A stretch of 16,160 nt of DNA, taken from positions 1 to 16,160 of IMG/VR virus record IMGVR_UViG_2512047041_000002; one strand, given 5' to 3'. The stretch comes from a virus (lineage: Duplodnaviria > Heunggongvirae > Uroviricota > Caudoviricetes). The notes under the pieces were generated by a model. The model made no database searches, was not told where the DNA came from, and saw only the letters and a program-made list of their open reading frames with translations. Position numbers and translations under genes: made by a program. Below are positions 1,285 through 16,160 of the stretch, one piece after another. Within the stretch, counting starts at the first letter, position 1. Each line of letters begins with the position of its first letter.

Positions 1285-1330
1285 AGGTTGCTCCGGGCTA
1301 TGAAATAGAAAAATGAATCCGTTGAAGCCT

Positions 1331-1345
1331 GCTTTTTTATACTAA
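1331..1345. other. attL core (lambda 15-bp common core O), junction of bacterial B arm and phage P' arm
   Basis: Exact GCTTTTTTATACTAA; upstream flank gaagcct matches the attB B arm, downstream gttggcattataaaaaagcattgcttatcaatttg matches the lambda attP P' arm. Confidence 0.85.
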
Positions 1346-1425
1346 GTTGGCATTATAAAAAAGCATTGCTTATCAATTTGTTGCAACGAACAGGTCACTA
1401 TCAGTCAAAATAAAATCATTATTTG
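1346..1425. promoter_or_regulatory. attL P' arm with IHF H' site and Int arm-type sites P'1-P'3
   Basis: IHF-like tATCAAtttgTTG at 1371..1383; tandem arm-type-like decamers caGGTCACTAT (1391..1401), CAGTCAAAAT (1402..1411), AAAATCATTA (1412..1421) close to consensus C/AAGTCACTAT. Confidence 0.7.
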
Positions 1426-2489
1426 ATTTCAATTTTGTCCCACTCCCTGCCTCTGTCATCACGATACTGTGATGCCATGGTGTCCGACTTATGCCCGAGA
1501 AGATGTTGAGCAAACTTATCGCTTATCTGCTTCTCATAGAGTCTTGCAGACAAACTGCGCAACTCGTGAAAGGTAGGCGGATCCCCTTCGAAGGAAAGAC
1601 CTGATGCTTTTCGTGCGCGCATAAAATACCTTGATACTGTGCCGGATGAAAGCGGTTCACGACGAGTAGATGCAATTATGGTTTCTCCGCCAAGAATCTC
1701 TTTGCATTTATCAAGTGTTTCCTTCATTGATATCCCGAGAGCATCAACATGCAATGCTGTTGGGATGGCAATTTTTACGCCTGTTTTGCTTTGCTCGACA
1801 TAAAGATATCCATCTACGATATCAGACCACTTCATTTCGCATAAATCACCAACTCGCTGCCCGGTAACAACAGCCAGTTCCATTGCAAGTCTAAGCCAAC
1901 ATGGTGATGATTCTGCTGCTTGATAAATTTTCAGGTATTCGTCAGCCGTAAGTCTTGATCTCCTTACCTCTGATTTTGCTGCGCGAGTGGCAGCGACCGG
2001 GTTTGTTGTTATATGGCCTTCAGCTATTGCCTCTCGGAATGCATCGCTCAGTGTTGATCTGATTAACTTGGCTGACGCCGCCTTGCCCTCGTCTATGTAT
2101 CCATTGAGCATTGCTGCAATTTCTTTTGTGGTGATGTCTTCAAGTGGAGCATCAGTCAGACCCCTCCTTATTGCTTTAATTTTGCTCATGTAATTTATGA
2201 GTGTCTTCTGCTTGATTCCTCTGTTGGCGAGAATTTTTTCGTAGCGATCAAGCCATGAATGTAACGTAACAGAATTATCACTGTTGATTCTCGCTGTCAG
2301 AGGCTTGTGTTTGTGTCCTGAAAATAACTCAATGTTGGCCTGTATAGCCTCAGTGATTGCTATCCTCCTGTCTCGGCCTAATCCAAACTCTTTACCCGTC
2401 CTTGGGTCCCTGTAGCAGTAATATCCATTGTTTCTTATATAAAGATTAGGGGGTAAATCCCGGCGCTCATGACTTCGCCTTCTTCCCAT
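1419..2489 (-). CDS. int: Tyrosine integrase, lambda Int (356 aa)
   Basis: Translation MGRRRSHERRDLPPNLYIRNNGYYCYRDPRTGKEF... ends ...QYRDDRGREWDKIEIK, which I recognise as lambda Int with only a few substitutions; located next to attL and overlapping xis as in lambda. Confidence 0.95.
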   Translation of the reverse strand: MGRRRSHERRDLPPNLYIRNNGYYCYRDPRTGKEFGLGRDRRIAITEAIQANIELFSGHKHKPLTARINSDNSVTLHSWLDRYEKILANRGIKQKTLINYMSKIKAIRRGLTDAPLEDITTKEIAAMLNGYIDEGKAASAKLIRSTLSDAFREAIAEGHITTNPVAATRAAKSEVRRSRLTADEYLKIYQAAESSPCWLRLAMELAVVTGQRVGDLCEMKWSDIVDGYLYVEQSKTGVKIAIPTALHVDALGISMKETLDKCKEILGGETIIASTRREPLSSGTVSRYFMRARKASGLSFEGDPPTFHELRSLSARLYEKQISDKFAQHLLGHKSDTMASQYRDDRGREWDKIEIK

Positions 2490-2685
2490 TTCTGATCCTC
2501 TTCAAAAGGCTACCTGTTACTGGTCGATTTAAGTCAACCTTTACCGCTGATTCGTGGAACAGATACTCTCTTCCATCCTTAACCGGAGGAGGGAATATCC
2601 TGCATTCGCGCACCCATCGACGAACTGTTTCAAGGCTTCTTGGGCGTCGCTGGCGTGCGTTCCACTCCTGAAGTGTCAAGTACAT
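2467..2685 (-). CDS. xis: Excisionase Xis (72 aa)
   Basis: Internal ATG at 2683..2685 gives MYLTLQEWNARQRRPRSLETVRRWVRECRIFPPPVKDGREYLFHESAVKVDLNRPVTGSLLKRIRNGKKAKS, matching lambda Xis as I recall it; the 102-aa ORF in the track is an upstream extension. Confidence 0.92.
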   Translation of the reverse strand: MYLTLQEWNARQRRPRSLETVRRWVRECRIFPPPVKDGREYLFHESAVKVDLNRPVTGSLLKRIRNGKKAKS

Positions 2686-2802
2686 CGCAAAGTCTCCGCA
2701 ATTACACGCAAGAAAAAGCCGCATTGATGCGGCGATGGTAGGTCTGGATATCATTGAGCAATGAACAGGCCTCATCGAGTGTGAGGCGGTGTTATTTCAT
2801 GG

Positions 2803-3147
2803 TTAGTCCTTGCGTAGCTCGCTGATTCTTCTGTAAGTCTCTGGTGCTTTGTTTCCGTGTATCTTCATTTCAAACTTCAACAGAGCAACGAGAGAATCCC
2901 ATTCGTTGAGGATGCCTTTGAATGCCGGAACGCGCTTTGCAACCTTGTCGAATGAATCTCTGATTTCTGGAATCTGCTCAACAAGTGCAACGCATCGCCG
3001 GAAGTCTGCTGCGTCATGTGGAGCGCCGAAGTGATGACCATAGATATTTTTTTTCAGTCCACATGCGATTGAGGCAAGAGTTGCGCTACTGATGCCGACA
3101 TCGCCAGTTGATTGCCATTTCAAAACCTTCATAGCCAAATCTGACAT
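2803..3147 (-). CDS. Hypothetical phage early-left protein (114 aa)
   Basis: ATG at 3145..3147 preceded by GGAGA Shine-Dalgarno; ORF MSDLAMKVLKWQSTGDVG...; no motif recognised. Track start at 3174 lacks an RBS. Confidence 0.6.
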   Translation of the reverse strand: MSDLAMKVLKWQSTGDVGISSATLASIACGLKKNIYGHHFGAPHDAADFRRCVALVEQIPEIRDSFDKVAKRVPAFKGILNEWDSLVALLKFEMKIHGNKAPETYRRISELRKD

Positions 3148-3173
3148 TTCTTGTCTCCAATAAAAAACCGCCA

Positions 3174-3341
3174 TCAGGCGTCTTGGTGTTCTTTCAGTTC
3201 TTCAATTCGAATATTGGTTACGTCTGCATGCGCTATCTGCGCCCATATCATCCAGTGGTTATAGCAGTCGTTGATGTCCTCTGCTTCGATAACCCTGTCG
3301 AATGGCTCTCCATTCCATTCACCTGTGACTCGGAAGTGCAT
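3174..3341 (-). CDS. Small hypothetical protein (55 aa), not in ORF track
   Basis: Hand translation of minus strand: MHFRVTGEWNGEPFDRVIEAEDINDCYNHWMIWAQIAHADVTNIRIEELKEHQDA*; GGAG Shine-Dalgarno 7 nt upstream; hydrophilic, protein-like composition, unlike the overlapping 61-aa track ORF. Confidence 0.45.
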   Translation of the reverse strand: MHFRVTGEWNGEPFDRVIEAEDINDCYNHWMIWAQIAHADVTNIRIEELKEHQDA

Positions 3342-3441
3342 TTATCATCTCCATAAAACAAAACTCGCCGTAGCGAGTTCAGATAAAAGAAATCCCCGCG
3401 AGTGCGAGGATTGTTATTCACCTTTGACGGCAAGTTGCAGG

Positions 3442-3969
3442 TTAGCCACGGTTAACCTCCTGCGGCGGTTCTGGCAGCGGCATCCAGTGGGTTACGTCAT
3501 CCAAGATATTTCCTGATAAATATGTGAAAGCTCTATATTTTTTGTAATCAATTGGACTCATTACCCAGTTCCAATATGCTGCCACTATTTGACCTTGACT
3601 AAATGCCAGTAACATTTTGGTGTCGTCCGGCATTCGCTCACTACAGCTTATCCAACCATCCGGAGTTACCGGCACTGGCTGAGCGGTATAAAGCGGTGTT
3701 ATATCTGCCCGAAAATTACATGCTTTATGCAGCCGCACCCCCCGTTCGACTTCTGCTTTGTCAGGATACATACCAGTGAACGTGTTATATTCACGGTCAA
3801 TTTGCGTGAAGGTTACCTTCCACGCCACCGGCTCTGCCTCAAGCGATGCCAGAGCAATTCGTGCCAGTTCTTCCGCTTCTTCTGCTGGCAGTACAACGTT
3901 GCTACCAGGTCTGTATGTTTCGCGCCACTGCTTGATTGTCAGCAGTCGCTCTTTGGTAATAGTGGTCAT
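3442..3969 (-). CDS. DUF551-like phage protein (175 aa)
   Basis: C-terminal PDGWISCSERMPDD...THWMPLPEPP signature that I associate with DUF551 phage proteins; ATG overlaps upstream stop (ATGA). Confidence 0.6.
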   Translation of the reverse strand: MTTITKERLLTIKQWRETYRPGSNVVLPAEEAEELARIALASLEAEPVAWKVTFTQIDREYNTFTGMYPDKAEVERGVRLHKACNFRADITPLYTAQPVPVTPDGWISCSERMPDDTKMLLAFSQGQIVAAYWNWVMSPIDYKKYRAFTYLSGNILDDVTHWMPLPEPPQEVNRG

Positions 3970-4481
3970 GCCGCGTTTCCTTCTTTCTTATTAACAATTA
4001 CACCGTCATATATTTCATTAAGGTGCCCTCTCAACTCCATGCGCCTTAATGCAGATAACATGTAATCGCATTCAACCTGCTTATTTCCAGTAAATGGCTT
4101 ATCGTCAGGATTACCCCAACAGCAATTACCCTTGGGCCATCCATGTACTTTCCGTACTCTTCCGTTAACAACGTGAAGTAATCCCCAGCCGGGAGGTAAA
4201 TCCTCAACTGAAATAATTTCCGGCTCACTAATAAAGAATCGCCAGTCGCCCATGCCAAGTGAGGGATTTTTACGGAAACGCTTTTTTCTATCTGCCAACA
4301 AGTCAGCACGAGAACACTTCGCCTCTATCAGGCATGATGCTGAATTTCTGAATCCCATAGCATCTGGCTGTTCTCCGGTACTGGTTACAGCTATAAAGCG
4401 GTCATGAAAACAGACCTTGAACCCGTTGCGCTTAAGGAACTTGTGCGCAATCTGACAGAGTTCGCTGTGTGTTAACGCCAT
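3966..4481 (-). CDS. Putative PD-(D/E)xK nuclease-fold protein (171 aa)
   Basis: Start MALTHSELCQ at 4479..4481 with AAGGAGAG Shine-Dalgarno; motif GEQPDAMGF ... CLIEAKCS resembles the PD...(D/E)xK signature; Cys-rich C-terminal region. Fold assignment is by motif only. Confidence 0.45.
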   Translation of the reverse strand: MALTHSELCQIAHKFLKRNGFKVCFHDRFIAVTSTGEQPDAMGFRNSASCLIEAKCSRADLLADRKKRFRKNPSLGMGDWRFFISEPEIISVEDLPPGWGLLHVVNGRVRKVHGWPKGNCCWGNPDDKPFTGNKQVECDYMLSALRRMELRGHLNEIYDGVIVNKKEGNAA

Positions 4482-4482
4482 A

Positions 4483-5076
4483 TCACTCTCCTTTGATGCG
4501 AATGCCAGCGGCACGGGAATCATTCCATCGCTTTACTTCTTCACGAATTACGTCAATGCATTCTTTCGAATCCATTAGGTAATCTTCATCAAAAAGACGT
4601 TCCTGTTCGTTTTCTATCGCAACAATGATTGCTTCAACTAACTTTTGTACCTGAGAACCACTTTCTAACTCTGCTATGCGCTTACTCCCATCCGAGATAA
4701 CGCCCTCGTAATACTCACGCTGCTCGTTGAGTTTTGATTTTGCCAACTCCAGTTGTTTTGTTAGTTCCGCAATACGGCAAACATCGTTGATACGCGTTTC
4801 CTCTAATGCGTTGATCTCATCCAACAATGCCAGCGCAACATTTGGATTAAAAGCAGCAATAAATTCAGCGTTTGCATAAGCCTGAACATCTGTTTCAACC
4901 AGGCAGTTAACATGACATTCTGCAATCACGCCACCGGGTTCTCCTTTCCATTTTTGGCAAACAAAAACTCCTGTTAAATTGCCGTGCTGGTTAACAGATG
5001 TATGCCCTACGATGTAGCTCCCTTTCGTTGCCTTTTCTGCCGCATCACGCAGTGCCTGATAATTAATTTCGCTCAC
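4483..5076 (-). CDS. Ead/Ea22-like early protein (197 aa, GTG start)
   Basis: GTG at 5074..5076 with GGAGGA Shine-Dalgarno, overlapping upstream stop (GTGA); MSEIN... N-terminus and ...AGIRIKGE C-terminus resemble Ea22-family proteins as I recall them. Confidence 0.55.
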   Translation of the reverse strand: MSEINYQALRDAAEKATKGSYIVGHTSVNQHGNLTGVFVCQKWKGEPGGVIAECHVNCLVETDVQAYANAEFIAAFNPNVALALLDEINALEETRINDVCRIAELTKQLELAKSKLNEQREYYEGVISDGSKRIAELESGSQVQKLVEAIIVAIENEQERLFDEDYLMDSKECIDVIREEVKRWNDSRAAGIRIKGE

Positions 5077-5297
5077 TCTTCATCCTCCAAGTCGGCAACG
5101 GCGTCCATCACATCAGAACCGCGAATAACCTCAAAAGCACGGCAGGCCATTTGAAATACCAGTTGCTCTTGCGGGTGAGGAGACTCCCAATATTTGAAGC
5201 CTGGGCGATGCGTGTACCCCATCATTGAATAAAAATCACCAGCAAGCTTAATCGCGGCATCGACAAGCTCTCTGTTAGTCATTCTTTTTCCGCTCAC
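5073..5297 (-). CDS. Hypothetical protein (74 aa, GTG start)
   Basis: GTG at 5295..5297 preceded by AAGGAGG; translationally coupled to both neighbours (4-nt overlaps). Confidence 0.5.
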   Translation of the reverse strand: MSGKRMTNRELVDAAIKLAGDFYSMMGYTHRPGFKYWESPHPQEQLVFQMACRAFEVIRGSDVMDAVADLEDEE

Positions 5298-5713
5298 TGG
5301 TTGCCTCCTTTGCGAAGCTGGGCGGCTAACTCATCACATATGTGCGTCAAAGAACAAAGTTTGATTGATGGATGTTCGCGCATCATCTCTACTCCCTGCG
5401 CCCGCACTTCAGACAGGAAAGCATCGGTGGCTGGCATATTTCCTGTTGCCTTCATTGCCTCCAAAATAACCAGAACGCCATCTCGCCCAACCACCTCAGC
5501 GATAACCTCGGTGTTGTCGCCAACAACATCGCAGAATGCCTGAACTGCCTTACGAGCCAGCGCACTCTCCGCCGCCAGCGCCGCGCACTTGGCCTCCGCT
5601 TCAGCAAATTTACGCACCAGATATTCAGCGTTTGTTTCGTTAACCTTTAAATCGCTTGGGATGCATTTACCTTTCAGGAATCCATCCATCTCAATTAGTG
5701 ACATTTGTTTCAT
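5294..5713 (-). CDS. Hypothetical protein (139 aa)
   Basis: ATG at 5711..5713 overlaps upstream stop (ATGA); part of a chain of coupled ORFs; no motif recognised. Confidence 0.55.
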
Positions 5714-5874
5714 TTCTTCCCACTCCGCAACATCGCATTCAGATATTTGTTTTGATTCACTGACGGAAAAGAATTTCTCTTTAGCAATTCCTCTCTCGAT
5801 GGCATTGGCTTTACGCGCTGGCGAATAATCATTTCTGCCGGAAGAATGCCGGGGTTGTATGCAAGTCCTCTCAT
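5710..5874 (-). CDS. Small hypothetical protein (54 aa)
   Basis: ATG at 5872..5874 preceded by GAGGA that overlaps the TGA stop of the upstream gene; the longer 101-aa track ORF overlaps the 5885..6181 gene and lacks an RBS. Confidence 0.4.
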
Positions 5875-5884
5875 GGTAAATTCC

Positions 5885-6181
5885 TCAGTCATTACTGATA
5901 GCGCCATAGCGTGATCGATAATTACGCAGCCGCGGGTCGATATATTCAGGGAAGTGGGTATATGTGGCTTTGCGGAATGGTCGGATTGATGTTTCGTTTG
6001 TTCGGTCCTTCTCATTTTTTAACGCGAGTTGTATATCGCGTCGGTACATCCGTTCTGCTTTTGTTTCTGGTGGCAGATCGATAAACGTGTCGAAAATGTT
6101 TTTGATATTTTCCAGCACCTCCGCCTTGGAGCTACCGGAGCAATTGCGCGGGTCATCCGCACCATACAGAGGCGCTGGCAT
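5885..6181 (-). CDS. Hypothetical protein (98 aa)
   Basis: ATG at 6179..6181, weak AAGG Shine-Dalgarno; fits the operon spacing. Confidence 0.5.
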
Positions 6182-6204
6182 AATGGGAGCCTTATTTTCA
6201 GTAA

Positions 6205-6792
6205 TCAGAAAGCAGGGTAATCGTTCTTGCTGTAACCATAATCATCTGCATGATTCTGGCTTACGTTTTTAGAGCGATTGTCTTTATCTTTGAGATTGGC
6301 AACCATGTTGGCGATAGTTTCTGGTTGCTTGCCTTCTGCCTTTTCTTTAAGGGTTTGACCTGTTTGTGCAATAAACGGGATGCGTATTTCCATCTGGTAG
6401 TTGTCTGCGCCAGTCTTTTTGTTTGTGGTTAATACTTTCTGGAGCACTAACCCGATTTTCTTTCCATGAAATTCAGGTGCAACAAATTTACTGGCGGAAA
6501 CCATATGCTGCGTTAATTGTCCAATCCCGGCACACCCCATCATGGCGTGAACGACATTTGCGCCAAATTTGTTTTCCGTTCCGTCATTTTTCTGAACACA
6601 GACGCTAAGATATTGGATTTTACGTCCGTCGTCGGATTCTCCAGAAAACTCAATAAATTTGGCTCCTTTTTCTGATTGCTTTAGTTCTGCTTCAGTAATG
6701 GTAATGATATGGGCGCCAGTTTCGTTAATAAAACCACCTTGCCCTGCGGTCAGTGCTGCTTCTTCGTTATAAGTAAAAATCACGTTGCTCAT
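6205..6792 (-). CDS. Sak4-partner protein (195 aa), possibly ssDNA-binding (DUF669-like); not a canonical SSB
   Basis: Directly downstream of and overlapping (ATGA) the Sak4-like ATPase gene; Lys-rich acidic C-terminal tail ending DYPAF; the family name is from memory and uncertain. Confidence 0.5.
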   Translation of the reverse strand: MSNVIFTYNEEAALTAGQGGFINETGAHIITITEAELKQSEKGAKFIEFSGESDDGRKIQYLSVCVQKNDGTENKFGANVVHAMMGCAGIGQLTQHMVSASKFVAPEFHGKKIGLVLQKVLTTNKKTGADNYQMEIRIPFIAQTGQTLKEKAEGKQPETIANMVANLKDKDNRSKNVSQNHADDYGYSKNDYPAF

Positions 6793-7469
6793 GCGGCGTT
6801 TTCCTTAATTTGATGAACATTATTGATGCCGTAGTAATCACAAACAGTGGCATCGACGAAAGAGAGATCGTTATCAATCTCATTGGAATCAAACATTCCC
6901 ATTGGGGATTTGACAGTGTCTGCACCGTTGTTTTTCGTGGTGAAAAAGAACTGGTCATCGCGGGTAAGAGTGCGAAGAACTATAGTAAACATGCCTTCGA
7001 CAGTGATTTTCTCGTCCAGCATTTTGCCGATAGTTTTCATTTTCACGCGCCCCATAGGGGTTTCTTCGGTATGTGCAAGAAAATAGACTCTCAGGTCATC
7101 AGGTGCATCCTGTGCAGCCTTAATCACCTCCCATGCGTGGCGGCCTATCTCAGTAAATTTATCAAACGATTTTTCTTCTGAGCGGCGCATAAACTCATTG
7201 CTCATCACATACTGGAAGTCATCAACAATAACGATTCTTTTTCCGTATTCGTGAGCACGCTTAATTACAGCAACTATTACGTCCCATTTGTCAGTGGTAA
7301 CTACGGTTCCTTTTTTTGCTCTGGCATCCCATGCAAGCCAGTCTTTTGATTTAAATGGTAGCGGCTTGCCTATTGGTTTTATAAGTATTGCTTCCTCTGG
7401 ATTGATATTTCTCATGCTGGTTGATTTTCCGGTGCCAGATTCACCGAGTATTAATGTCGCAGTTCCCAT
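6789..7469 (-). CDS. Sak4-type RecA-like core ATPase (226 aa), phage recombination/annealing protein
   Basis: Walker A GESGTGKST near N-terminus, Walker B-like RIVIVDDF, and a size typical of Sak4; occupies the position of lambda Red genes. Confidence 0.7.
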   Translation of the reverse strand: MGTATLILGESGTGKSTSMRNINPEEAILIKPIGKPLPFKSKDWLAWDARAKKGTVVTTDKWDVIVAVIKRAHEYGKRIVIVDDFQYVMSNEFMRRSEEKSFDKFTEIGRHAWEVIKAAQDAPDDLRVYFLAHTEETPMGRVKMKTIGKMLDEKITVEGMFTIVLRTLTRDDQFFFTTKNNGADTVKSPMGMFDSNEIDNDLSFVDATVCDYYGINNVHQIKENAA

Positions 7470-7477
7470 AATTTGCC

Positions 7478-7666
7478 TCAGAATGGTAATTCGGATGGGC
7501 AGGAAAGAAATTCGCGCTCATTCATGCGCTCTCTTTGCGCCTGCCATAAACAAAGTTGTTTCTTTGATTTATCTCCCGCTTTACGCCAGTAACGAGCCTC
7601 AGCAATGTGATATTCTCTTTTTAATCGACTTAACTCTGGAGTTTTCGCCAGTTCTACCGGAATCAT
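7478..7666 (-). CDS. Hypothetical protein (62 aa)
   Basis: ATG at 7664..7666 with GGAGG Shine-Dalgarno, overlapping the Kil-like stop (ATGA); basic, Arg/Lys-rich. Confidence 0.5.
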   Translation of the reverse strand: MIPVELAKTPELSRLKREYHIAEARYWRKAGDKSKKQLCLWQAQRERMNEREFLSCPSELPF

Positions 7667-7776
7667 TTTGACCTCCATTTTCTGTAGGCTTCTACGGCTT
7701 CACGAAACATCTTTTCATCGCCAATAAAAGTGGCGATAGTGAATTTAGTCTGGATAGCCATAAGTGTTTTATCCAT
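7663..7776 (-). CDS. Kil-like small protein (37 aa)
   Basis: MDKTLMAIQTKFTIATFIGDEKMFREAVEAYRKWRSK resembles lambda Kil as I recall it; position immediately downstream of cIII, overlapping its 3' end, matches lambda gene order. Confidence 0.5.
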   Translation of the reverse strand: MDKTLMAIQTKFTIATFIGDEKMFREAVEAYRKWRSK

Positions 7777-7909
7777 TTTTGGGAACTCCTGGCTGATTAA
7801 GTATGTCGATAAGGCGTTTCCATCCATCACGTAATTTACGTGTGATTCGTTCAAGTAAAGATTCGGAAGGGCAGCCAGCAACAGGCCACCCTGCAATGGC
7901 ATATTGCAT
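7769..7909 (-). CDS. cIII: CIII (46 aa; shorter than the 54-aa lambda protein)
   Basis: ATG at 7907..7909 with AGGAG Shine-Dalgarno; MQYAIAGWPVAGCPSESLLERITRKLRDGWKRLIDILNQPGVPKNG* matches lambda CIII as I recall it up to PKNG, then stops. Confidence 0.85.
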   Translation of the reverse strand: MQYAIAGWPVAGCPSESLLERITRKLRDGWKRLIDILNQPGVPKNG

Positions 7910-7970
7910 GGTGTGCTCCTTATTTATACATAACGAAAAACGCCTCGAGTGAAGCGTTATTGGTATGCAT

Positions 7971-7996
7971 ATAAAAAGGCCCTCACACTGGAGGGC
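7971..7996 (-). terminator. Intrinsic terminator-like hairpin upstream of cIII (tL1-like position)
   Basis: On the minus strand GCCCTC-cagtgt-GAGGGC (6-bp GC stem) followed by CTTTTTAT. Confidence 0.5.
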
Positions 7997-8261
7997 AAAG
8001 AAGATTTCCAATAATCAGAACAAGTCGGCTCCTGTTTAGTTACGAGCGACATTGCTCCGTGTATTCACTCGTTGGAATGAATACACAGTGCTTCTCTGTG
8101 CTAAATAATTAAATCATATTCTGATTTGGTTAGTTTATACGCACCTCCTCTGGTGTAATATGCAAATCTGTCTTTGCTTCCATCAGAATTGTATACCCAC
8201 CCACCAAATGGAAAGATAGTGAACCGCCCCGGGTTTCCTGGAGAGTGTTTTATCTGTGAAC

Positions 8262-9152
8262 TCAGGCTGCCAGATCATCGTTTCCGATGGAAGCATAATA
8301 AGCTTTTTCTGCTTCTGCCGGAGGAGTATGGCCCAGCCTTTCCAGCAATCGTCGATTGTTATACCAGTCCACCCACGTGAGTGTGGCCAGTTCCACTTCT
8401 GCACGGTTTTTCCAGCTCTTACGGTGTATTACCTCCGCTTTGTAAAGACCATTGATGCTCTCCGCCATCGCGTTGTCATACGAGTCGCCTGTACTTCCTG
8501 TTGATGCCAGTAATCCGGCTTCCTTAAGCCGCTGTGTGTAGGCCAGCGATACATACTGAGAACCTTTATCACTGTGATGGACCGTGCCGGACGGTCGACG
8601 GGCCCATAACGCCTGCTCCAGTGCATCCAGCACGAATGTCGTTTCCATGGACGATGAGACCCGCCACCCCACGATGTATCCGGCAAACACATCAATGATG
8701 AACGCCACATAGACGAAGCCCCGCCATGTGCTGACGTAAGTAAAATCAGCCACCCACAGCTGGTCAGGTCGTTCTGCCACGAACTGACGGTTTACGCGGT
8801 CGCCTGCGGCAACGGCTTTCCGGCTGATGGTCGTACGGACCTTTTTACCCCGGAGAACACCGGCAAGTCCCATAACCGCCATGAGACGTGCCACAGTGCA
8901 TCTGGCCACTCTGATACCTTCCCGTAACAACTGACGCCAGACTTTACGCACACCGTATACCTTGTGATTTTCATCGTATACGCGCTGTATCTCTTTCTTC
9001 AGCCAGTCATCGCGCTGCGCACGGGCACTGCGTTTATCCGGATGATGTCGCTGTTGCTGACAGTGGTAATACGTTGACGGGGCAATATGCAGTTCGCTGC
9101 ATAGCGGTCCGACCCCGTACTGCTCACGCAGCTTATCCAGCAGTGGCATCAT
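8262..9152 (-). CDS. IS629-like transposase OrfB (296 aa, DDE catalytic domain)
   Basis: IS3-family OrfB-like sequence (…[31 protein letters not shown]…[11 protein letters not shown]…) in the -1 frame relative to orfA. Confidence 0.85.
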
Positions 9153-9475
9153 TTTTTCCAGAGGCGGTCGAACTCCGCCTTCGCAAAATAAGCGGAAGCC
9201 TGGCGAAGGATATCGTTACTGCGGCGCAGTTCACGATTTTCACGTTCCAGCTCTTTCAGACGCTGACGTTCAGCGGTGGTGAGCCCTCCATCACCGCCCC
9301 CGGTATCCCGCTCATGCTGGCGAACCCAGACACGCAGAGTCTCCGGCGTACAGCCAATCTTTGGAGCAATGGAACAAATTGTCGCCCATTGTGAGTCATA
9401 TTCGCCCTGACTTTCCAGAACCATACGGACTGCCCGTTGACGGACTTCGGGGGAAAAACGAGTATTTTTAGTCAT
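9149..9475 (-). CDS. IS629-like transposase OrfA (108 aa, HTH)
   Basis: [30 protein letters not shown]... with C-terminal leucine-zipper-like region; ends in an A6 run (GGAAAAAATGA) at the orfA/orfB overlap. Confidence 0.85.
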
Positions 9476-9622
9476 CCTGTTTACCTCTTTCTCAGGAAGT
9501 TTAGTCTCCAGGATTCCCGGGGCGGTTCATCTCCAGAACTTGGCAGGATTACAAGTTCATACGGAGAACTTGCACGAGCAGCAACAAAGCCACTTCGATA
9601 TGTTGAACAGACAGGGCGATCT

Positions 9623-10030
9623 ATGCCAGCCATTAGCACTCTTGAGAATGGCCTTCATCCAGTTTTAGAGAGCGCATTGTCTGGCGCTTTTAGAACTACT
9701 GGCACTATCGCAGGGTTCTCTGGAGGAGGCGTTATTGGAGCAATAGCGGGTGGCGCTGCAGGTGGGGCAATTGATGCAATGGCAAAAGGAGCGATAGCGA
9801 AATTATCCGCAACTAGAAGCGGTCGTTACGCTATTGAAAAGGCTGTTCAAGAGGCAACAAAGGCAGTTAAGGTTGGGGCAAGTGATGGCGCATTAGCGGC
9901 GGCGGAACGCAGATTTATGGCAAATAAGGCCGCCGTAAAAGCAATACGCGAGGCACTAGGAAACGAAGAGTTCCAGCGTTTAGCAAGAGCTGGAATTGTG
10001 GCATCGCTAAGCGGAATGGCACAGGAGTAA
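9623..10030 (+). CDS. Glycine-zipper protein (135 aa), possible membrane-active/bacteriocin-like; 5' end may be truncated by the IS
   Basis: TIAGFSGGGVIGAIAGGAAGGAIDAMAKGAI GxxxG-repeat segment followed by Ala/Lys-rich amphipathic helices; weak RBS at the first ATG and the frame stays open back to the IS boundary. Confidence 0.4.
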   Translation: MPAISTLENGLHPVLESALSGAFRTTGTIAGFSGGGVIGAIAGGAAGGAIDAMAKGAIAKLSATRSGRYAIEKAVQEATKAVKVGASDGALAAAERRFMANKAAVKAIREALGNEEFQRLARAGIVASLSGMAQE

Positions 10031-10360
10031 TTAGTCATCCATGGATGGATTGAGCTTATCTCGTGTTGATGTGGCAATTTTCCCAACATTTTTCAACCAA
10101 GATTTTAAGAAGGATATGTCGTCCTTAATATCATGAATATCCTCATTCTTTATACGATCAACCTTATCCTCTAAGCTCTCTATAGAACGCTCAATGCTAG
10201 ACAGAGAGATTTTTAAGTCCCCTTGCTCACGTTCCAGTGAGGATTTGAGAGCACAATATTCGTTTTCTAGAATTCCTATTTTTTTTGTTAGAGAGTGCAT
10301 TCGATACTCATACACCAAACCAGAAACGACTAATGCAGCCAACAGAAACCATTCAAGCAC
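10031..10360 (-). CDS. Membrane-anchored coiled-coil protein (about 110 aa, GTG start)
   Basis: GTG at 10358..10360 preceded by AAGGAGG; N-terminal hydrophobic helix LEWFLLAALVVSGLVYEY followed by heptad-like SLEREQGDLKISLSSIERSIESLEDKVDRIK; stop abuts the convergent glycine-zipper stop (TAATTA). Confidence 0.5.
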   Translation of the reverse strand: MLEWFLLAALVVSGLVYEYRMHSLTKKIGILENEYCALKSSLEREQGDLKISLSSIERSIESLEDKVDRIKNEDIHDIKDDISFLKSWLKNVGKIATSTRDKLNPSMDD

Positions 10361-10390
10361 ACCAACCTCCTTAGTTTTGAGCAGGATACC

Positions 10391-10756
10391 ATGAAAAAAG
10401 TTAACATTGGAAACGTACCAAAGATGCTCGTTCCGCTCTTTGAGAGCGGTACAATTGTGTGTTGTAGAGACTTTCCAGAATGGCAACGCCTGCATCAAAA
10501 ACTTGGCGTTGACGTGCAGGACTCGGATGCCAACGGAGCGTCTCATACAATGAGCAGCGAGAATGGTGTTTTGCATGTGATAGGTGTGTTCAATGGCAAA
10601 CTATCTACTATTGCCCATGAGTGCGCTCACATGGCATTCGATATCTGCTCAAGGGTCGGTGTTGATGTTGAACCAGGAAGAGCCAATGAGACTTACTGCT
10701 ACTTAATGAGCAGGCTTGTTGAGTTCTGCGAGCGACATATCAAAAAGCCGGAGTGA
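10391..10756 (+). CDS. Small HExxH-motif protein (121 aa), possible ImmA/IrrE-like metallopeptidase-fold protein
   Basis: ATG at 10391 with AGGA 4 nt upstream; motif TIAHECAHMAFD (HExxH) in the C-terminal half; two Cys pairs. Assignment by motif only. Confidence 0.45.
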   Translation: MKKVNIGNVPKMLVPLFESGTIVCCRDFPEWQRLHQKLGVDVQDSDANGASHTMSSENGVLHVIGVFNGKLSTIAHECAHMAFDICSRVGVDVEPGRANETYCYLMSRLVEFCERHIKKPE

Positions 10757-10764
10757 CCCGGCTT
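10745..10764. terminator. Stem-loop between convergent genes (possible bidirectional terminator)
   Basis: AAGCCGG-agtgac-CCGGCTT overlapping the HExxH gene stop; flanked by A-run on one side and T-rich sequence on the other. Confidence 0.3.
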
Positions 10765-10769
10765 GATTA

Positions 10770-10949
10770 TTACTTTTTGCTGTCTGGAGTTCGCTTATCC
10801 AATACCCAGCCATGACCTGGCTTTGTTGTTGGTGGAAGCCTTTCGTTGTCCTTGACGGTGGCAAAATTGTCTTTCTTACCGCCGCGTGGGCCAACTTCTT
10901 GGTATATTCCGCCGTTTTTTCCTGTGTTTTCACCTGGTTTTTTCGCCAT
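10770..10949 (-). CDS. Small Gly/Lys-rich hydrophilic protein (59 aa)
   Basis: ATG at 10947..10949 with GAGGT Shine-Dalgarno; MAKKPGENTGKNGGIYQEVGPRGGKKDNFATVKDNERLPPTTKPGHGWVLDKRTPDSKK; TTGACT -35-like hexamer upstream. Confidence 0.5.
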   Translation of the reverse strand: MAKKPGENTGKNGGIYQEVGPRGGKKDNFATVKDNERLPPTTKPGHGWVLDKRTPDSKK

Positions 10950-11039
10950 GATATACCTCAACATGCACCCGTTATTGGGCGATTAAATATTGATCTCATT
11001 TTATGAGTAGTCAATATGGTCCAAAAAAGGTAAAAATTA

Positions 11040-11064
11040 ACCCACCGTCAGGTGGGTTTTTTAT
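11040..11064. terminator. Intrinsic terminator hairpin, likely bidirectional; ends the Mnt-like/ClpP-like operon
   Basis: ACCCACC-gtca-GGTGGGT followed by TTTTTTAT on the plus strand and by TTAATTTTTACC on the minus strand; 24 nt beyond the ClpP-like stop. Confidence 0.6.
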
Positions 11065-11087
11065 AAGGAGTAATCATGATTTACCCA

Positions 11088-11624
11088 TCAAACAACCCAC
11101 CAGTTTGCCTGATTGGATGCCAGCCTTGCAGTTTTTATGGAATTAATTATGCCATGCTCAAGAGCCTTGTTAGCATCCAAAATGGTCGAGTCTGCTATCA
11201 GGGATGCCCACCTAATATGGGTTCCGATGTCGATATTGAACGTCTCAACGAAGCGATCAAGATCGTTATCGAGGCATTTCCCGTACTCTCTCAATCTGGC
11301 ATGGTCGGCGGCTGGGGAGGCAAAGCACCATAATAGAGGATGTAACAGGAATCTTGATAATGGGTTTGCGAAACGTTCTGAGCCAGCCAGGAAAACGATA
11401 TTAGCTATGGATTCAACATTGCTTATGTTGTGAGTTCTAACGGTAACAGGGAGTGACTTAAGAAAGTTATACGCAGTAAAGCCAGCGGCAGTTTCCCCTC
11501 CCTGACTTGATATATGGATATTTAATTCAGTTGCGCCTTGAGATAATGCGGTGAGACAGTGGTTCTGAAGTTGCCCAACAGTGGCAGTGTTAACGGGGCA
11601 TAAGAAATGAATTGTGTGCAGCAT
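11088..11624 (-). CDS. ClpP-fold (S14-family-like) serine peptidase homologue (178 aa), non-structural context
   Basis: By-eye alignment to E. coli ClpP blocks: ISSQGGETAAGFTAYNFL vs INSPGGVITAGMSIYDTM; ESIANIVFLAGSERFANPLSRFLLHP vs [29 protein letters not shown] (Ser and His aligned); C-terminal ALEHGIINSI vs AVEYGLVDSIL. Start ATG overlaps the Mnt-like stop (TAATG). Confidence 0.6.
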   Translation of the reverse strand: MLHTIHFLCPVNTATVGQLQNHCLTALSQGATELNIHISSQGGETAAGFTAYNFLKSLPVTVRTHNISNVESIANIVFLAGSERFANPLSRFLLHPLLWCFASPAADHARLREYGKCLDNDLDRFVETFNIDIGTHIRWASLIADSTILDANKALEHGIINSIKTARLASNQANWWVV

Positions 11625-11872
11625 TATTTTTCATCCTTAGCATACATGGTCTTTAGCGTCTCAAGTAGCGCCTCTTTGAATTTATCAGCTTCTTGGTTAG
11701 CGAATCCTTCAAGTGAGCGAGAGCCATCAAGATTATCAACATGTTTTTGAAGGATAAGCACGATCTCTGAGTTCATTGATCTGCCGTTTTTATCCGCTTC
11801 TTGCTGAATGCGTTTCTTTAAATAGTCTGGAATCCTAATCCCCAATGGACTGATATCTCTTGCACCTTTCAT
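11624..11872 (-). CDS. Mnt-like ribbon-helix-helix repressor (82 aa)
   Basis: ATG at 11870..11872 with GAGGAG Shine-Dalgarno; MKGARDISPLGIRIPDYLKKRIQQEADKNGRSMNSEIV... shows the RHH pattern of P22 Mnt (NGRSMNSE) plus a C-terminal extension; divergent from the Arc-like gene. Confidence 0.75.
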   Translation of the reverse strand: MKGARDISPLGIRIPDYLKKRIQQEADKNGRSMNSEIVLILQKHVDNLDGSRSLEGFANQEADKFKEALLETLKTMYAKDEK

Positions 11873-11894
11873 TTCTCCTCCTGCACGCTGTGCG

Positions 11895-11967
11895 TAGCTA
11901 CACAGTGTAGGCAAAAAATTTTTGACTTTAAATAAACACGGTGTAGTATTTAGTTATCACGGTGTAG
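11895..11967. promoter_or_regulatory. immI divergent promoter/operator region
   Basis: Perfect palindrome CTACAC-A-GTGTAG (11898..11910); two direct copies of CACGGTGTAG (11937..11946, 11958..11967) 21 bp apart; TTGACT (11922..11927) with TAGTAT 16 bp downstream as a candidate rightward promoter overlapping the repeats. Confidence 0.55.
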
Positions 11968-11981
11968 CAAGTGAGGTGGAA

Positions 11982-12122
11982 ATGAAAGTTAGAGACATCG
12001 CTCCATTAGGGATTCGTATCCCGCCAGAGATTAAAGAAAAATTGAAGGAAAAGGCTAAGGAGGAGGGCAGGTCTTTAAATTCAGAAATAGTGAAGCGTCT
12101 TATTCGCAGCCTAAAAAGTTGA
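11982..12122 (+). CDS. Arc-like ribbon-helix-helix repressor (46 aa)
   Basis: ATG at 11982 with GAGGTGG Shine-Dalgarno; [46 protein letters not shown]; the RHH strand [11 protein letters not shown] is nearly identical to the Mnt-like protein; the 66-aa track ORF is an upstream extension. Confidence 0.7.
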
Positions 12123-12170
12123 AGCCCCAACTGCTGGAACAGTCGGGGCTTCGGTATCAACAAATCAGAT
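12113..12170 (-). ncRNA. Candidate sar-like antisense RNA opposing the antirepressor RBS (hypothetical)
   Basis: Minus-strand TTGACT (reverse complement of 12200..12205) and AATAAT (12175..12180) with a 19-bp spacer; downstream a 12-bp imperfect hairpin (12121..12152) followed on the minus strand by AACTTTTTAG. Confidence 0.25.
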
Positions 12171-12183
12171 AGGAATTATTGAT

Positions 12184-13113
12184 ATGACAAGTTTAGCAAA
12201 GTCAACATTAAATTGCACTAACAGCATCACCATTTCAGACGTCAAGATTCATATGGATTCAGAGGGGCGTTACTCGCTTAATGACCTGCACAAGGCATCA
12301 GGTAAAGAGCGTCGTCATGAGCCTGCGGCGTGGCTGCGACTCGAACAAACCAATGAGTTAGTTCAAGAAATTCTAAATACACAGATGTGTGTATTTAAAA
12401 ATGGCGATAACTTTAATTCTTCAGAATCGCAGATTAAGAAGCCAATGGACTCTAAGAAGGGTCGCTACGGAGGCACCTACGTGTGCAAGGAGCTTGTTTA
12501 CTCCTACGCCATGTGGATTAGCGCAGCCTTTGCGCTGAAGGTTATCCGTGCATATGACGCAATGGTTACTGCCACACAAGAGAGGAAAGCTATTGGCGGT
12601 AAAACTTCAGTAGCTGAACGCACACCGCTACGAGATGCAGTAAACATGCTGGTAGGAAAGAAAGGACTTCGCTATGACGATGCATACAATATGGTTCATC
12701 AGCGTTTTGGTATTGACAGCATTGATGAACTTTCAATTGAACAAATCCCGCTGGCCGTAGAGTACATCCACAGGGTAGTGCTTGAAGGTGAGTTCATCGG
12801 CAAACAAGAGAAGAAAACCAACGAGCTTTCTGCAAAAGAAGCAAACAGCCTTGTATGGTTATGGGATTATGCCAACCGCTCACAGGCATTATTCCGCGAA
12901 CTGTATCCGGCATTAAAACAAATTCAATCGAACTATTCCGGCAGATGTCATGACTGCGGTTATGAGTTCTCCCGTATTATCGATATGGCGAGAGATGTTT
13001 TAATCAACCATACACGAGATGTTGATATTAATGAGCCAGACGGACCAACGAATCTTTCCGCATGGATGAGACTTAAGAATAAAGAATTACCTCCTTCAGT
13101 ACATAACTACTGA
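12184..13113 (+). CDS. Antirepressor with N-terminal KilA-N domain (309 aa), Ant-like
   Basis: Position directly after the Arc-like gene as in P22 immI; N-terminal region ([25 protein letters not shown]...[23 protein letters not shown]) resembles KilA-N; AGGA RBS. Confidence 0.65.
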
Positions 13114-13131
13114 CAGATAACCAACGCAACG

Positions 13132-13156
13132 ACCCAGCTTCGGCTGGGTTTTTTTA
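13132..13156 (+). terminator. Rho-independent terminator after the antirepressor gene
   Basis: ACCCAGC-ttcg-GCTGGGT followed by TTTTTTTAT, 19 nt after the stop codon. Confidence 0.7.
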
Positions 13157-13213
13157 TGCCCAAAATTCACCGTAGCCATGCTGCGGCGATTCCTTGTGTC
13201 TGGAGCAAATTAA

Positions 13214-15130
13214 ATGAGAGACATTACAGCCAATGTGATCGTATCGATGCCTTCGCAACTCTTCACTATGGCGCGTTCTTTTAAAGCCGTAGCTAATGGC
13301 AAAATTTATATCGGTAAAATTGACACTGATCCTGTAAATCCAGAAAACCAGATTCAGGTCTATGTGGAGAATGAAGACGGTTCTCACGTTCCTGTTTCGC
13401 AACCAATAATCATTAACGCTGCTGGATATCCTGTATATAACGGACAGATTGCCAAATTCGTTACCGTGCAAGGCCATTCTATGGCTGTTTATGATGCGTA
13501 TGGTGCGCAGCAGTTCTATTTTCCTAATGTGCTGAAGTATGACCCTGATCAACTACGGCAGCAATTAGAAGACCCAGATGGAGCGAATAAATACCCAAAA
13601 CTTCAGATAGCAAGATGGAGAGACAGTTATGATGTAAGAGGTTGGGGGGCTATTGGTGATGGTGTTCATGATGATACATCAGCTCTATCAGAATTACTTT
13701 CTGTTGCAACAGGTGGTGAAAAGATAGATGGGCGAGGGCTTACTTTTAAAGTATCAACTCTTCCAGATGTCAGTCGATTTAAAAATGCTCGTTTTTTATT
13801 TGAGAGAATACCGGGTCAGCCTCTTTTTTATGCTTCTGAAGATTTTATCCAGGGAGAGTTATTTAAAATTACAGATACACCGTGGTACAACGCCTGGACG
13901 CAGGATAAAATGTTTGTATATGACAATGTCATCTATGCGCCTTTTATGGCTGGAGACCGCCATGGTGTAAATAACCTCCATGTTGCATGGGTTCGCTCAG
14001 GAGATGACGGGAAGACCTGGACAACGCCGGAATGGCTTACAGATTTACATGAAAACTATCCCACAGTTAACTATCACTGCATGAGTATGGGGGTTGTCAG
14101 AAATCGCCTTTTTGCTGTAATTGAGACGCGGACCGTGAGAGGAAATAAACTGCAGGTTGCAGAGTTGTGGGATCGCCCAATGAGTCGCAGCCTTCGCGTT
14201 TATGGTGGTATAACGAAAGCAGCAAATCAGCAAGTCGCTTATATTCGCATTACTGATCACGGATTATTTGCTGGTGATTTTGTCAACTTCTCAAACTCTG
14301 GTGTTACAGATGTTACCGGGAATATGACGGTGACTACTGTTATTGATAAAAATACCTTTACAGTTACGACGCAAAATACCCAGGATGTGGATCAGAATAA
14401 CGAGGGTAGATACTGGAGTTTTGGCACATCATTTCACTCGTCACCATGGAGAAAAACCAGTCTTGGAACTATTCCTTCTTTTGTTGACGGAAGCACTCCT
14501 GTTACTGAGATTCACAGTTTTGCGACGATTAGCGATAACAGTTTTGCTGTTGGCTACCATAATGGTGATATTGGTCCACGCGAGCTTGGGATACTCTATT
14601 TCTCTGATGCTTTCGGTTCTCCTGGTAGCTTTGTTCGCAGACGCATACCTGCAGAATATGAGGCGAATGCATCTGAGCCATGTGTAAAATATTATGATGG
14701 CATTCTGTATCTGACGACCAGGGGGACATTAAGTACTCAACCCGGTAGTTCATTGCACAGAAGCTCTGATTTAGGTACATCATGGAATTCTCTTCGCTTC
14801 CCAAATAATGTTCATCACTCAAACCTTCCTTTTGCCAAAGTTGGCGATGAGCTGGTTATTTTTGGCAGTGAGCGCGCATTTGGTGAGTGGGAAGGAGGAG
14901 AACCTGATAACCGTTATGCAGGAAATTATCCAAGAACATTTATGACCAGAGTTAACGTCAATGAGTGGAGTCTGGATAATGTAGAGTGGGTTAATGTTAC
15001 TGATCAGATTTATCAGGGCGGAATAGTTAACTCTGCGGTTGGTGTTGGTTCAGTTTGTATCAAAGACAACTGGCTGTACTACATTTTCGGTGGGGAAGAC
15101 TTTTCTAAACCCATGGAGCATAGGGGATAA
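13214..15130 (+). CDS. Tailspike: P22-like head-binding N-terminal domain plus glycosidase-type receptor-binding domain with Asp-box (BNR) motifs; likely the 5' part of a frameshifted longer gene
   Basis: First ~115 aa ([11 protein letters not shown]...[38 protein letters not shown]...[15 protein letters not shown]...NVLKYDPDQ) closely resemble the P22 gp9 N-terminus as I recall it; [14 protein letters not shown] motif; two Asp-boxes SGDDGKTW and SSDLGTSW. Confidence 0.8.
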
Positions 15131-16160
15131 CAACAGAAAATATCCTTATGTTCACGATGGTCACCCGGCTGATTTGTATTGTTTCAGGGTGAAAATTAAA
15201 CAGGAAGAATTTGTTTCAAGGGATTTTGTCTACGGAGCCACTCCTAACAGAACGCTTCCTACTTTTATGTCGACGTCAGGCGTGAGGACGGTTCCTGTAC
15301 CCGTTGATTTCACAGATGATGTTGCCGTCCAGTCACTGACTGTCCATGCAGGTACATCAGGACAAGTTCGCGCGGAAGTCAAACTTGAGGGTAATTACGC
15401 CATTATTGCGAAGAAAGTACCGTCTGATGATGTTACCGCTCAGAGATTAATCGTTAGCGGCGGTGAAACAACGTCTTCAGCAGATGGTGCAATGATAACG
15501 TTGCATGGTTCCAGAAGCAGTACTCCACGTCGCGCGGTATATAACGCACTCGAACATCTTTTTGAGAACGGAGATGTTAAACCTTATCTTGATAATGTAA
15601 ATGCTCTTGGTGGTCCGGGAAACAGGTTCTCGATAGTTTATCTTGGCTCCAATCCTGTGGTTACCAGTGACGGAACATTAAAGACAGAGCCGGTCTCTCC
15701 TGACGAAGCATTGCTGGATGCCTGGGGTGACGTCAGGTATATCGCTTATAAATGGCTGAACGCTGTCGCTATAAAGGGGGAAGAAGGGGCGAGGATACAT
15801 CATGGTGTAATCGCGCAGCAACTTCGTGATGTTCTTATTTCTCACGGACTCATGGAAGAAGAAAGCACAACATGCCGCTATGCCTTTCTTTGCTATGACG
15901 ATTATCCCGCAGTATATGATGACGTCATTACTGGCCAAAGGGAAATGCCGCTGACTGATAATGACGGGAGCATCATTGTTGATGAGGATGATAATCCAGT
16001 GATGGTAATAGAAGACATCATTGAGCGCGTTGAAATAACGCCAGCAGGATCTAGATGGGGGGTCAGACCTGATCTCTTATTCTATATCGAGGCAGCATGG
16101 CAGCGCAGAGAAATGGATAAGATAAAAGCTAGGTTAGACTTAATAGAAGGGAAGCACTAA
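15039..16160 (+). CDS. Tailspike C-terminal region with S74-type intramolecular chaperone domain signature; probably continues 13214..15130 in another frame
   Basis: Frame open from 15027, overlapping the end of the upstream ORF; contains TSDGTLK (Ser-x4-Lys spacing as I recall for the autocleavage site of such domains) and [11 protein letters not shown] motif; track start is a TTG with no RBS, so an independent start is doubtful. Confidence 0.55.

Follow-up and report, generated by a model that had tools for sequence, protein, structure and literature searches.

Among the temperate control regions described to date, the closest to the one considered here is immI of phage P22, in which the paralogous ribbon-helix-helix (RHH) repressors Arc and Mnt read two operators with two different ribbons (PHFNFRM and PQFNLRW). 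The module to which these genes belong, the 'ant moron', is variable, and only its P22 version has been studied (PMC2629481). RHH ribbons are regarded as portable specificity determinants, and have been grafted into ParG (Zampini and Hayes 2012, PMC3413123); the same paper cites engineered Arc/Mnt hybrid repressors (Knight and Sauer 1989, an N-terminal swap; Raumann et al. 1995). In these engineered hybrids and grafts, it is the N-terminal arm and ribbon that carry operator specificity. The present analysis concerns a 16,160-nucleotide stretch of viral DNA (IMG/VR record IMGVR_UViG_2512047041_000002, positions 1 to 16,160; hereafter the window, meaning this whole stretch), in which a 109-bp spacer at 11873-11981 forms the exact gap between divergent genes for a Mnt-like and an Arc-like protein. 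We consider it probable, with some reserve, that this locus is a variant of P22-type immI in which two paralogous, divergently transcribed RHH repressors read one shared set of three operators. The features on which that reading depends are as follows.

11624-11872, minus strand: gene for the Mnt-like RHH repressor, 82 amino acids (aa), N-terminus MKGARDISPLGIRIP, helix cap G-R-S-M-N-S-E
11982-12122, plus strand: gene for the Arc-like minimal RHH repressor, 46 aa
11898-11910: putative operator O1, perfect dyad CTACAC-A-GTGTAG, that is CTACACAGTGTAG (a 6-N-6 palindrome), centre 11904
11934-11946: putative operator O2, imperfect dyad AAACAC-G-GTGTAG, centre 11940, 36 bp from the centre of O1
11955-11967: putative operator O3, imperfect dyad TATCAC-G-GTGTAG, centre 11961, 21 bp from O2

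By profile and residue-level homology, both proteins are members of the Arc/Mnt-type RHH family, whose repressors bind DNA sequence-specifically by a two-stranded beta-ribbon. Pfam Arc (PF03869, gathering score 20.4) matches the Mnt-like protein with 32.8 bits and the Arc-like protein with 46.1 bits, and a sequence search of solved chains aligns residues 1-75 of P22 Mnt (1MNT) to Mnt-like residues 4-74 (E 4.8e-5). Residues 9-46 of Arc align to Arc-like residues 8-45, and the Arc-like protein, which also aligns with Mnt, matches NCBIfam YlcI_YnfO_N (32 bits, cut-off 30), resembles other phage Arc proteins in its helix B region, and corresponds to a 46-aa open reading frame (ORF) called by PGAP in E. 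coli N32. Each protein has a ribbon ending in R-x-P and a helix B cap G-R-S-x-N-S-E, a motif invariant in the protein alignment. The C-terminal segment of the Mnt-like protein is homologous to the oligomerisation region of P22 Mnt, a coiled-coil domain by which P22 Mnt becomes tetrameric, and the Arc-like protein has no such segment.

The likeness between the two repressors is concentrated where DNA would be read. With the proteins anchored on G-R-S-x-N-S-E, and 11 arm-plus-ribbon residues compared between the partners of each cassette, the window pair agrees at 10/11 positions (Mnt-like segment RDISPLGIRIP), P22 Arc and Mnt (BK000583) at 5/11, and the other cassette types examined at no more than 7/11. 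The preliminary description of this DNA was thus right that the N-terminal strands are near-identical here and differ in P22, and its statement that the P22 repressors have different operators agrees with BK000583, where two are separately annotated. Within the window pair, identity is 12/14 at the N-terminus versus 11/32 in the remainder of the domain (34%, the helical parts; Fisher p 0.003). Nucleotide identity over the 14 N-terminal codons is 79%, and because 5/12 of the identical residues are encoded by different codons, recent gene conversion can be ruled out as the source of the likeness, and selection keeps the N-termini alike. HMMER places the two ribbons on Arc 9-15 and Mnt 5-11, such that Pro, Gly and Arg would occupy positions equivalent to DNA contacts. 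These three residues, together with R-D of the arm, are invariant in both proteins over all type-A orthologues, and the core-facing ribbon positions drift independently (L/M/V, I/V/L). In the window itself the core-facing residues are L, I, I in both proteins; in P22 they are F, L, W in one repressor and F, F, M in the other. Since arm and ribbon set specificity in the engineered hybrids and grafts, the same specificity is predicted for both window proteins. The hybrids and grafts are laboratory constructs, whereas the window offers a natural protein of the Arc lineage with the reading head of its Mnt-lineage partner and, by this comparison, is the extreme case within its immI clade, arm and ribbon being nearly identical in the two proteins.

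A second body of evidence comes from the spacer. All three sites are copies of a single 13-bp dyad on CAC-N-GTG(TAG), the fuller form of which is (G)CTACAC-N-GTGTAG(C). The perfect palindrome and the two direct copies 21 bp apart that the preliminary description had noted are both present, the copies being CACGGTGTAG at 11937-11946 and 11958-11967, and are better seen as one element, with the direct copies as imperfect dyads of the type of O1. A single 13-bp palindrome is not improbable by chance (about 4 expected per window, 16160/4096). The hexamer GTGTAG occurs five times in the window, counting both strands, with four occurrences inside 11898-11967, and shuffled sequences give 4.3 per whole window; exact CACNGTGTAG is confined to a 70-bp segment of the 16 kb, with four occurrences there (the three sites, O1 counting on each strand). 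Neither a repeat search nor the orthologue alignment revealed in the window spacer a second conserved dyad motif that one protein alone could use. P22, Kapi1-type and L083-type spacers each contain two different dyads. Two further candidates were rejected: an imperfect A/T-tract palindrome, GCAAAAAATTTTTG, lying between O1 and the -35 element, the A:T split of which shifts between orthologues and the tract of which is found also in phiv205-type cassettes having other operators, and a fourth half-site beside O1 (GCGTAG, 11891-11896), which is unconserved in orthologues.

Orthologous cassettes from E. coli, Pluralibacter gergoviae, two Serratia strains, Salmonella and metagenomes were aligned. 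O1 is invariant in eight orthologous spacers, as are the TTGAC of the -35 element and O2 together with TAGTATTT beside it, except that the O2 centre is free to be G or C. Of O3, CAC-N-GTG alone is kept, and its TAG box reads TAT, AAG, ATG or CTT. Between the mnt start codon and O1 just 4/24 alignment columns are invariant.

Covariation was followed in cassettes with an M-K-G start and a P-x-G-x-R ribbon in the Mnt-like protein (the MKG clade), collected by a scan of viral contigs and one genome per species. Across 38 distinct spacers, Mnt-like proteins with Arg5 accompany CAC-N-GTG sites, save for one half-site, and those with Ser5 always accompany CAT-N-ATG sites. A tree of the remaining domain residues scatters the Ser types over at least three to four places among the Arg types, and the match between residue and operator is therefore not a single inherited event. 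A second RHH clade, with the ribbon F-M-L-R-L-P (genome contigs L118-L122, L131, L133, L144, L156, L159, L165, L178 and others), has two to four upstream dyads of the form TGTCAC-N-GTGACA or TGTCAT-N-ATGACA. The same rule applies there: when the residue eight places ahead of the ribbon Arg is itself Arg, C:G adjoins the dyad centre, and other residues go with T:A. A universal form of this arm rule, in which Arg would always mean CAC-N-GTG, fails in four P-x-G-x-R cassettes, and from these comparisons the rule is claimed for the two clades alone, namely the enterobacterial MKG clade and the F-M-L-R-L-P clade.

The search was also run in reverse, from operator to protein. IMG/VR contains the exact O1 14-mer 76 times; in 18 cases, spread over about five lineages, a P-x-G-x-R RHH gene is at most 330 bp away, and the remaining 58 have no RHH gene nearby. 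Taken together, conservation, covariation and reverse search constitute three independent lines by which O1-O3 behave as real operators.

The comparative data bear as well on how a site is occupied. In the sister cassettes L047 and L048 the half-site GCTACAC forms an inverted pair and also direct repeats spaced by 11 bp, and from this the 7-bp half-site seems to be the recognition unit, usable in either orientation. In these two cassettes, and in L049, L100 and L101, O1 is a dyad and the sites 3' of the -35 element are direct repeats, TAGCTACAC, 11 bp apart. A model with one dimer centred on each 13-bp dyad is disfavoured, both by such lone half-sites and because an arm lying outside the ribbon ends could not reach the bases next to the centre. 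The use of GCTACAC in both orientations, along with an arm residue that covaries with the centre-adjacent base, favours instead a dimer on each half-site, the inner arms extending to the centre. This corresponds to the geometry of P22 Mnt, whose Arg2 contacts the central guanines of its operator. Omega of pSM19035, ParG and CopG, whose relatedness to the window proteins is limited to the RHH fold and which regulate plasmid copy number or partition, use direct and inverted heptads or tetramer boxes with one dimer each, an arrangement that recalls the use of GCTACAC in L047 and L048.

The position of the three sites relative to the predicted promoters is given by four further elements.

11922-11927, plus strand: -35 TTGACT of the arc-ant (rightward) promoter, from a promoter scan; an A6T5 tract precedes it at 11912-11921
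11944-11949, plus strand: rightward -10 TAGTAT, partly inside the right arm of O2; all orthologues keep GTGTAGTATTT
11904-11909, minus strand: candidate leftward -10 TACACT, inside O1, its last T being the central base of O1
11927-11932, minus strand: weak candidate leftward -35 TTTAAA, 17-bp spacer, read by hand, matching at 2-4/6 positions

The rightward promoter, with a 16-bp spacer, matches the consensus at 9/12 positions in the promoter scan, and O3 covers approximately +1 to +12 of the predicted transcript. The best evidence for a leftward promoter is comparative. Read in the mnt sense, O1 has T as its central base in 38/38 distinct related spacers, and the resulting TACAYT stands about 30 nt before the mnt start codon; the central bases of O2 and O3 vary in the same spacers, and the 36-bp spacing of O1 and O2 holds almost without exception across the clade. 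No convincing hexamers were found for a leftward promoter that overlaps the rightward one in the P22 manner. The predicted geometry looks back to back, with overlapping -35 regions.

Comparison with P22 reveals several similarities. Firstly, gene order and orientation agree: the RHH proteins are homologous to Mnt and Arc, sar RNA is present at full length, the antirepressor contains a P22_AR_C domain and the tailspike gene adjoins; mnt-like, arc-like, sar and ant were identified in the P22 order by Pfam, a PDB sequence search and Rfam, set against the annotation of BK000583. Secondly, one operator lies over the -10 and another over the start of the arc-ant promoter, positions that resemble those of Oarc and Omnt. 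Additionally, the P22 mnt operator and O1 match at 9/15 positions and have the same CAC-N-GTG core. The likeness of the window repeats to the CACGGTG centre of the P22 mnt operator, pointed out in the preliminary description, is borne out by the P22 operator, which contains GGTCCACGGTGGACC; it may be homologous, the arm Arg (A-R-D) being common to P22 Mnt. By these likenesses the spacer is an immI-type control region.

There are also differences. Distinct Oarc and Omnt operators, each with its own ribbon, are not found in the window, where one motif occurs three times and faces near-identical ribbons, P-L-G-I-R-I. The spacer is 109 bp long versus 90 bp in P22; the promoters are apparently back to back, with overlapping -35 regions, rather than fully overlapping and mutually exclusive like Pant and Pmnt of P22; O1, over the leftward -10, is an extra operator; the window antirepressor has a KilA-N N-terminal domain, unlike that of P22; and mnt is followed by a ClpP-like gene in the window, in place of orf59a and sieA. 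The suggestion in the preliminary description that the regulatory logic departs from that of P22 is supported in so far as one motif meets two like heads, but the departure is not special to the window, being shared by an entire clade of such cassettes.

A mechanism can be proposed on this basis. Each half-site would probably be bound by one RHH dimer, by homology with Arc and Mnt, with Pro, Gly and Arg of the ribbon reading the outer TAG box and Arg of the N-terminal arm (R5 of the Mnt-like, R4 of the Arc-like protein) reading the G that adjoins the dyad centre. O1 would hold the -10 of a weak promoter driving the Mnt-like and ClpP-like genes leftward, O2 that of a strong rightward arc-ant promoter, and O3 would cover the transcript start. 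In a lysogen the Mnt-like protein, with its RHH domain and C-terminal oligomerisation segment, would silence arc and ant from O2 and O3 and limit its own synthesis from O1. After infection, with no Mnt-like protein present, the rightward promoter would fire; the 46-aa Arc-like protein would then accumulate and close the same operators, thereby limiting Ant and turning the leftward promoter off, and sar RNA would impose a further, antisense control on ant. What would distinguish the two repressors is oligomeric state, timing and amount, and not the DNA sequence recognised. The sequences themselves show what the genes are, the homology of the proteins, the sites with their conservation, and the protein-DNA covariation; in this scheme we infer that each protein binds, how many dimers a site takes, where the promoters lie (the leftward one especially) and the order in which sites are filled.

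By analogy, the switch so pictured probably works more like lambda CI/Cro than like P22 Arc/Mnt. Lambda OR, a functional analogue and not a relative, also has two divergent repressors and three related dyads, one over the leftward and two over the rightward promoter, and its two regulators bind all three operators in opposite orders of affinity, differential affinity and cooperativity being documented for it. In the window, three related operators, spaced by 36 bp and 21 bp, likewise lie between divergent promoters flanked by regulator genes, and, as in lambda, just one of the two repressors has a domain for oligomerisation, its counterpart being a minimal dimer, a difference that for the window is predicted from sequence. 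CI and Cro are helix-turn-helix proteins with unrelated recognition helices, whereas the window proteins are RHH paralogues with the same ribbon; and the window module controls an antirepressor, whereas OR controls the primary decision between lysis and lysogeny.

That both repressors read the same operators is, on the sequence comparisons, most likely. Closely similar Arc-like proteins of L065 and L067 face spacers that share solely these operators as dyads. The Arc-like arm residue is Arg in 11/11 distinct CAC-type cassettes, with non-Arg residues in CAT-type cassettes alone, a weak trend that points in the right direction for binding by the Arc-like protein. The preliminary description had gone further, proposing that the two repressors compete for the same sites. 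The shared head, the operator-like repeats and the lack of a second dyad in the spacer support that proposal in part; the Arc-like protein may occupy these sites and may compete there with the Mnt-like one.

Several observations weigh against a shared operator set. Type-H cassettes (L072, L076 and similar) pair three CAC-N-GTG sites with an unrelated partner ribbon, ENILLRVP, so that the triad belongs primarily to the Mnt-like lineage and is no proof of binding by the partner. In CAT-N-ATG cassettes 5/8 distinct Arc-like proteins keep the arm Arg, and the Arc-like arm accordingly either does not read the centre or belongs to a protein that binds less specifically. Pro and Gly would be unusual at DNA-facing ribbon positions, and the contact model derives from alignment. 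Because O1 and the right arm of O2 contain -10 hexamers, their conservation is partly confounded. The promoter scan gave no leftward promoter, and the leftward -35 is weak and poorly conserved in relatives, such that this promoter is inferred and probably weak. The exceptions to the arm rule are three alphaproteobacterial genomes (L151, L166, L177) and an IMG/VR contig (L250). Finally, the window copy resides in a degraded prophage and may no longer operate as a switch.

The best surviving alternative, which we regard as possible but clearly less probable than shared reading, is that the two proteins recognise the same motif and yet divide the sites, the oligomeric Mnt-like protein binding cooperatively at O2 and O3 and the dimeric Arc-like protein preferring O1 and mainly shutting off mnt, with little competition and a lambda-like bistable switch as the outcome. 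O1 is indeed the sole full palindrome, O2 and O3 each having one good and one degenerate half; the 21-bp spacing of O2 and O3, two helical turns, is kept in type A and most type D cassettes; the segment homologous to the P22 Mnt C-terminus is confined to the Mnt-like protein; and the layout parallels OR3 versus OR2 and OR1 of lambda. Nevertheless, the TAG box of O3 is unconserved in orthologues, as listed above, the O2-O3 spacing differs by cassette type (16, 21, 22 or 24 bp), and proteins with identical reading heads should each bind every site to some extent.

It is unlikely that the Mnt-like protein alone uses the operators, with the Arc-like protein acting through mixed dimers that disable the oligomeric Mnt-like repressor or binding DNA elsewhere. 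Such an arrangement would suit the core-facing L, I, I shared by the window pair and different in P22, the type-H cassettes, which carry the same triad beside an unrelated partner ribbon, and the failure of the Arc-like arm Arg to track the centre-adjacent operator base. It sits poorly with the invariance across genera of Pro, Gly and Arg and of the R-D arm in the Arc-like protein, which is expected of DNA contacts and not of a purely structural strand, with the restriction of non-Arg arms to CAT-type cassettes when all 11 distinct CAC-type cassettes have Arg, with helical parts that are just 34% identical between the two proteins, and with a window spacer that offers no other conserved dyad. 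A related and somewhat more doubtful proposal is that mixed dimers form via the identical ribbon (core L, I, I), making the truncated Arc-like paralogue dominant-negative on the Mnt-like lysogenic repressor, with subunit exchange and operator competition together setting the switch, and that, separately, the arm rule (Arg for C:G, Ser or other non-Arg for T:A) defines immI immunity classes predictable from sequence.

Very improbable is the notion that the N-terminal likeness is a relic of recent duplication or gene conversion and the repeats are promoter elements or chance, all devoid of regulatory meaning: a 10-nt inverted repeat, GAAATGAAAG, does span both start codons, O1 and O2 do contain -10 hexamers, and a lone palindrome of this size is expected by chance, but the notion is already largely refuted by spacer conservation (the arrangement persists from E. 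coli to Serratia and, with a shifted operator, in Paraburkholderia), by protein-operator covariation, by the confinement of the operator core to the spacer, and by the codon usage and 79% nucleotide identity of the N-terminal codons.

The remaining features of the locus are these.

11877-11882, minus strand: Shine-Dalgarno sequence AGGAGG of the Mnt-like gene, read from the sequence
11973-11979, plus strand: Shine-Dalgarno sequence GAGGTGG of the Arc-like gene, read from the sequence
11088-11624, minus strand: ClpP-family protease-like gene, 178 aa (Pfam CLP_protease, E 2e-11)
12117-12182, minus strand: sar antisense RNA (Rfam RF00262 at full length, 67.6 bits, gathering score 43, E 1.3e-13)
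12184-13113, plus strand: antirepressor (Ant) gene, the regulated target (Pfam KilA-N and P22_AR_C; 'phage antirepressor Ant' in PGAP)

The start of the ClpP-like gene overlaps the stop codon of the Mnt-like gene, so that the two are probably co-transcribed, and the ClpP-like gene is probably expressed from the prophage together with the Mnt-like repressor; a role in exclusion or defence is possible for its product. A ClpP-like gene adjoins mnt also in phiv205-1, EC.P3, Salmonella L014 and Serratia L013. The sar RNA spans the arc-ant junction and ends in a terminator hairpin at 12121-12152, a terminator-like site in the scan. Its terminator region is 92.7% identical to that of P22, though the flanking arc and ant are of other types; neither promoter scan nor inspection by eye found a sar promoter in the window. 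Downstream, an endosialidase tailspike with a P22 head-binding domain adjoins the antirepressor gene. Around the start codons, both repressor genes have the sequence GAA-ATG-AAA-G in common, and a perfect 10-nt inverted repeat (CTTTCATTTC at 11866-11875, GAAATGAAAG at 11979-11988) spans the two.

The window belongs to an E. coli prophage that seems degraded or rearranged. Just some 9 kb separate immI from early genes and a lambda-type integrase (1419-2489, minus strand), with an IS3-family transposase (8262-9152, minus strand) in between, and the endosialidase tailspike, annotated as a pseudogene in E. coli N32, is broken up into two overlapping ORFs (13214-15130 and 15039-16160). The last-named strain, a cerebrospinal-fluid isolate, has a prophage region 99.8% identical to the window region. 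The window-type cassette is present in full in 18 of 5426 complete E. coli genomes. Some 160 other genomes of the species have the ClpP-like gene and the C-terminal third of mnt at 90-97% identity to the window, with a conserved sar terminator, but the RHH half of mnt, the spacer and arc exchanged for another set, for example the phiv205-1 type. Since these parts are replaced together, reading heads and operators move as a single block. When window positions 11600-11705 and 12113-12200 were compared with E. coli genomes, mosaic breakpoints were located inside mnt near codon 56, at the boundary of the RHH and C-terminal parts, and in the last arc codons with the sar terminator. These breakpoints delimit the block that is exchanged.

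The cassette is found in intact phages as well as in this degraded prophage, and its hosts include P22-like and lambda-like phages of E. coli, Salmonella, Serratia, Pluralibacter and Xenorhabdus. Window-type cassettes occur in the lambda-like phages PhiR12_1, _4 and _5. In PhiR12_1 (L180, PV340549.1 39120-41132), a lambda-like siphovirus, tail genes L and K are separated by a ClpP-like/Mnt-like/Arc-like/Ant cassette, 95% identical, each of the four genes being annotated as hypothetical. The module is hence a portable insert, not confined to P22-like phages. A distant relative in Paraburkholderia has two divergent P-x-G-x-R proteins and three GCTACAT-N-ATGTAGC sites, from which it would follow that the plan of one motif and two readers is old. 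CUS-3, according to the epsilon34 genome paper, is without arc; an intact, unannotated 46-aa Arc-like ORF, MKVKTLRMPEKLEKILEEKAKEECRSFSAEVIKRVLDSLKREGVMV, lies in its 'bsq2 boundary sequence' feature (CP000711.1 6899-6759; L006 1168-1308).

As read from these sequences, the shared-operator design is a variation on a well-known system, and the literature searched contained no earlier description of this immI operator plan. P22 Arc and Mnt are the textbook case of paralogues that diverged to read different DNA, and the window relative would represent the opposite outcome, one head and one operator type. Paralogues that share a head must differ by oligomerisation, timing or amount, and would thereby build a lambda-like switch from RHH parts. 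The comparative data additionally suggest a recognition rule, in which Arg of the arm pairs with the G adjoining the operator centre. The occurrence of the cassette in isolated phages such as PhiR12 opens the system to experimental study, and the natural specificity variants CAC-N-GTG and CAT-N-ATG, combined with the arm rule, could be used to predict the mutual immunity of prophages to one another's antirepressors.

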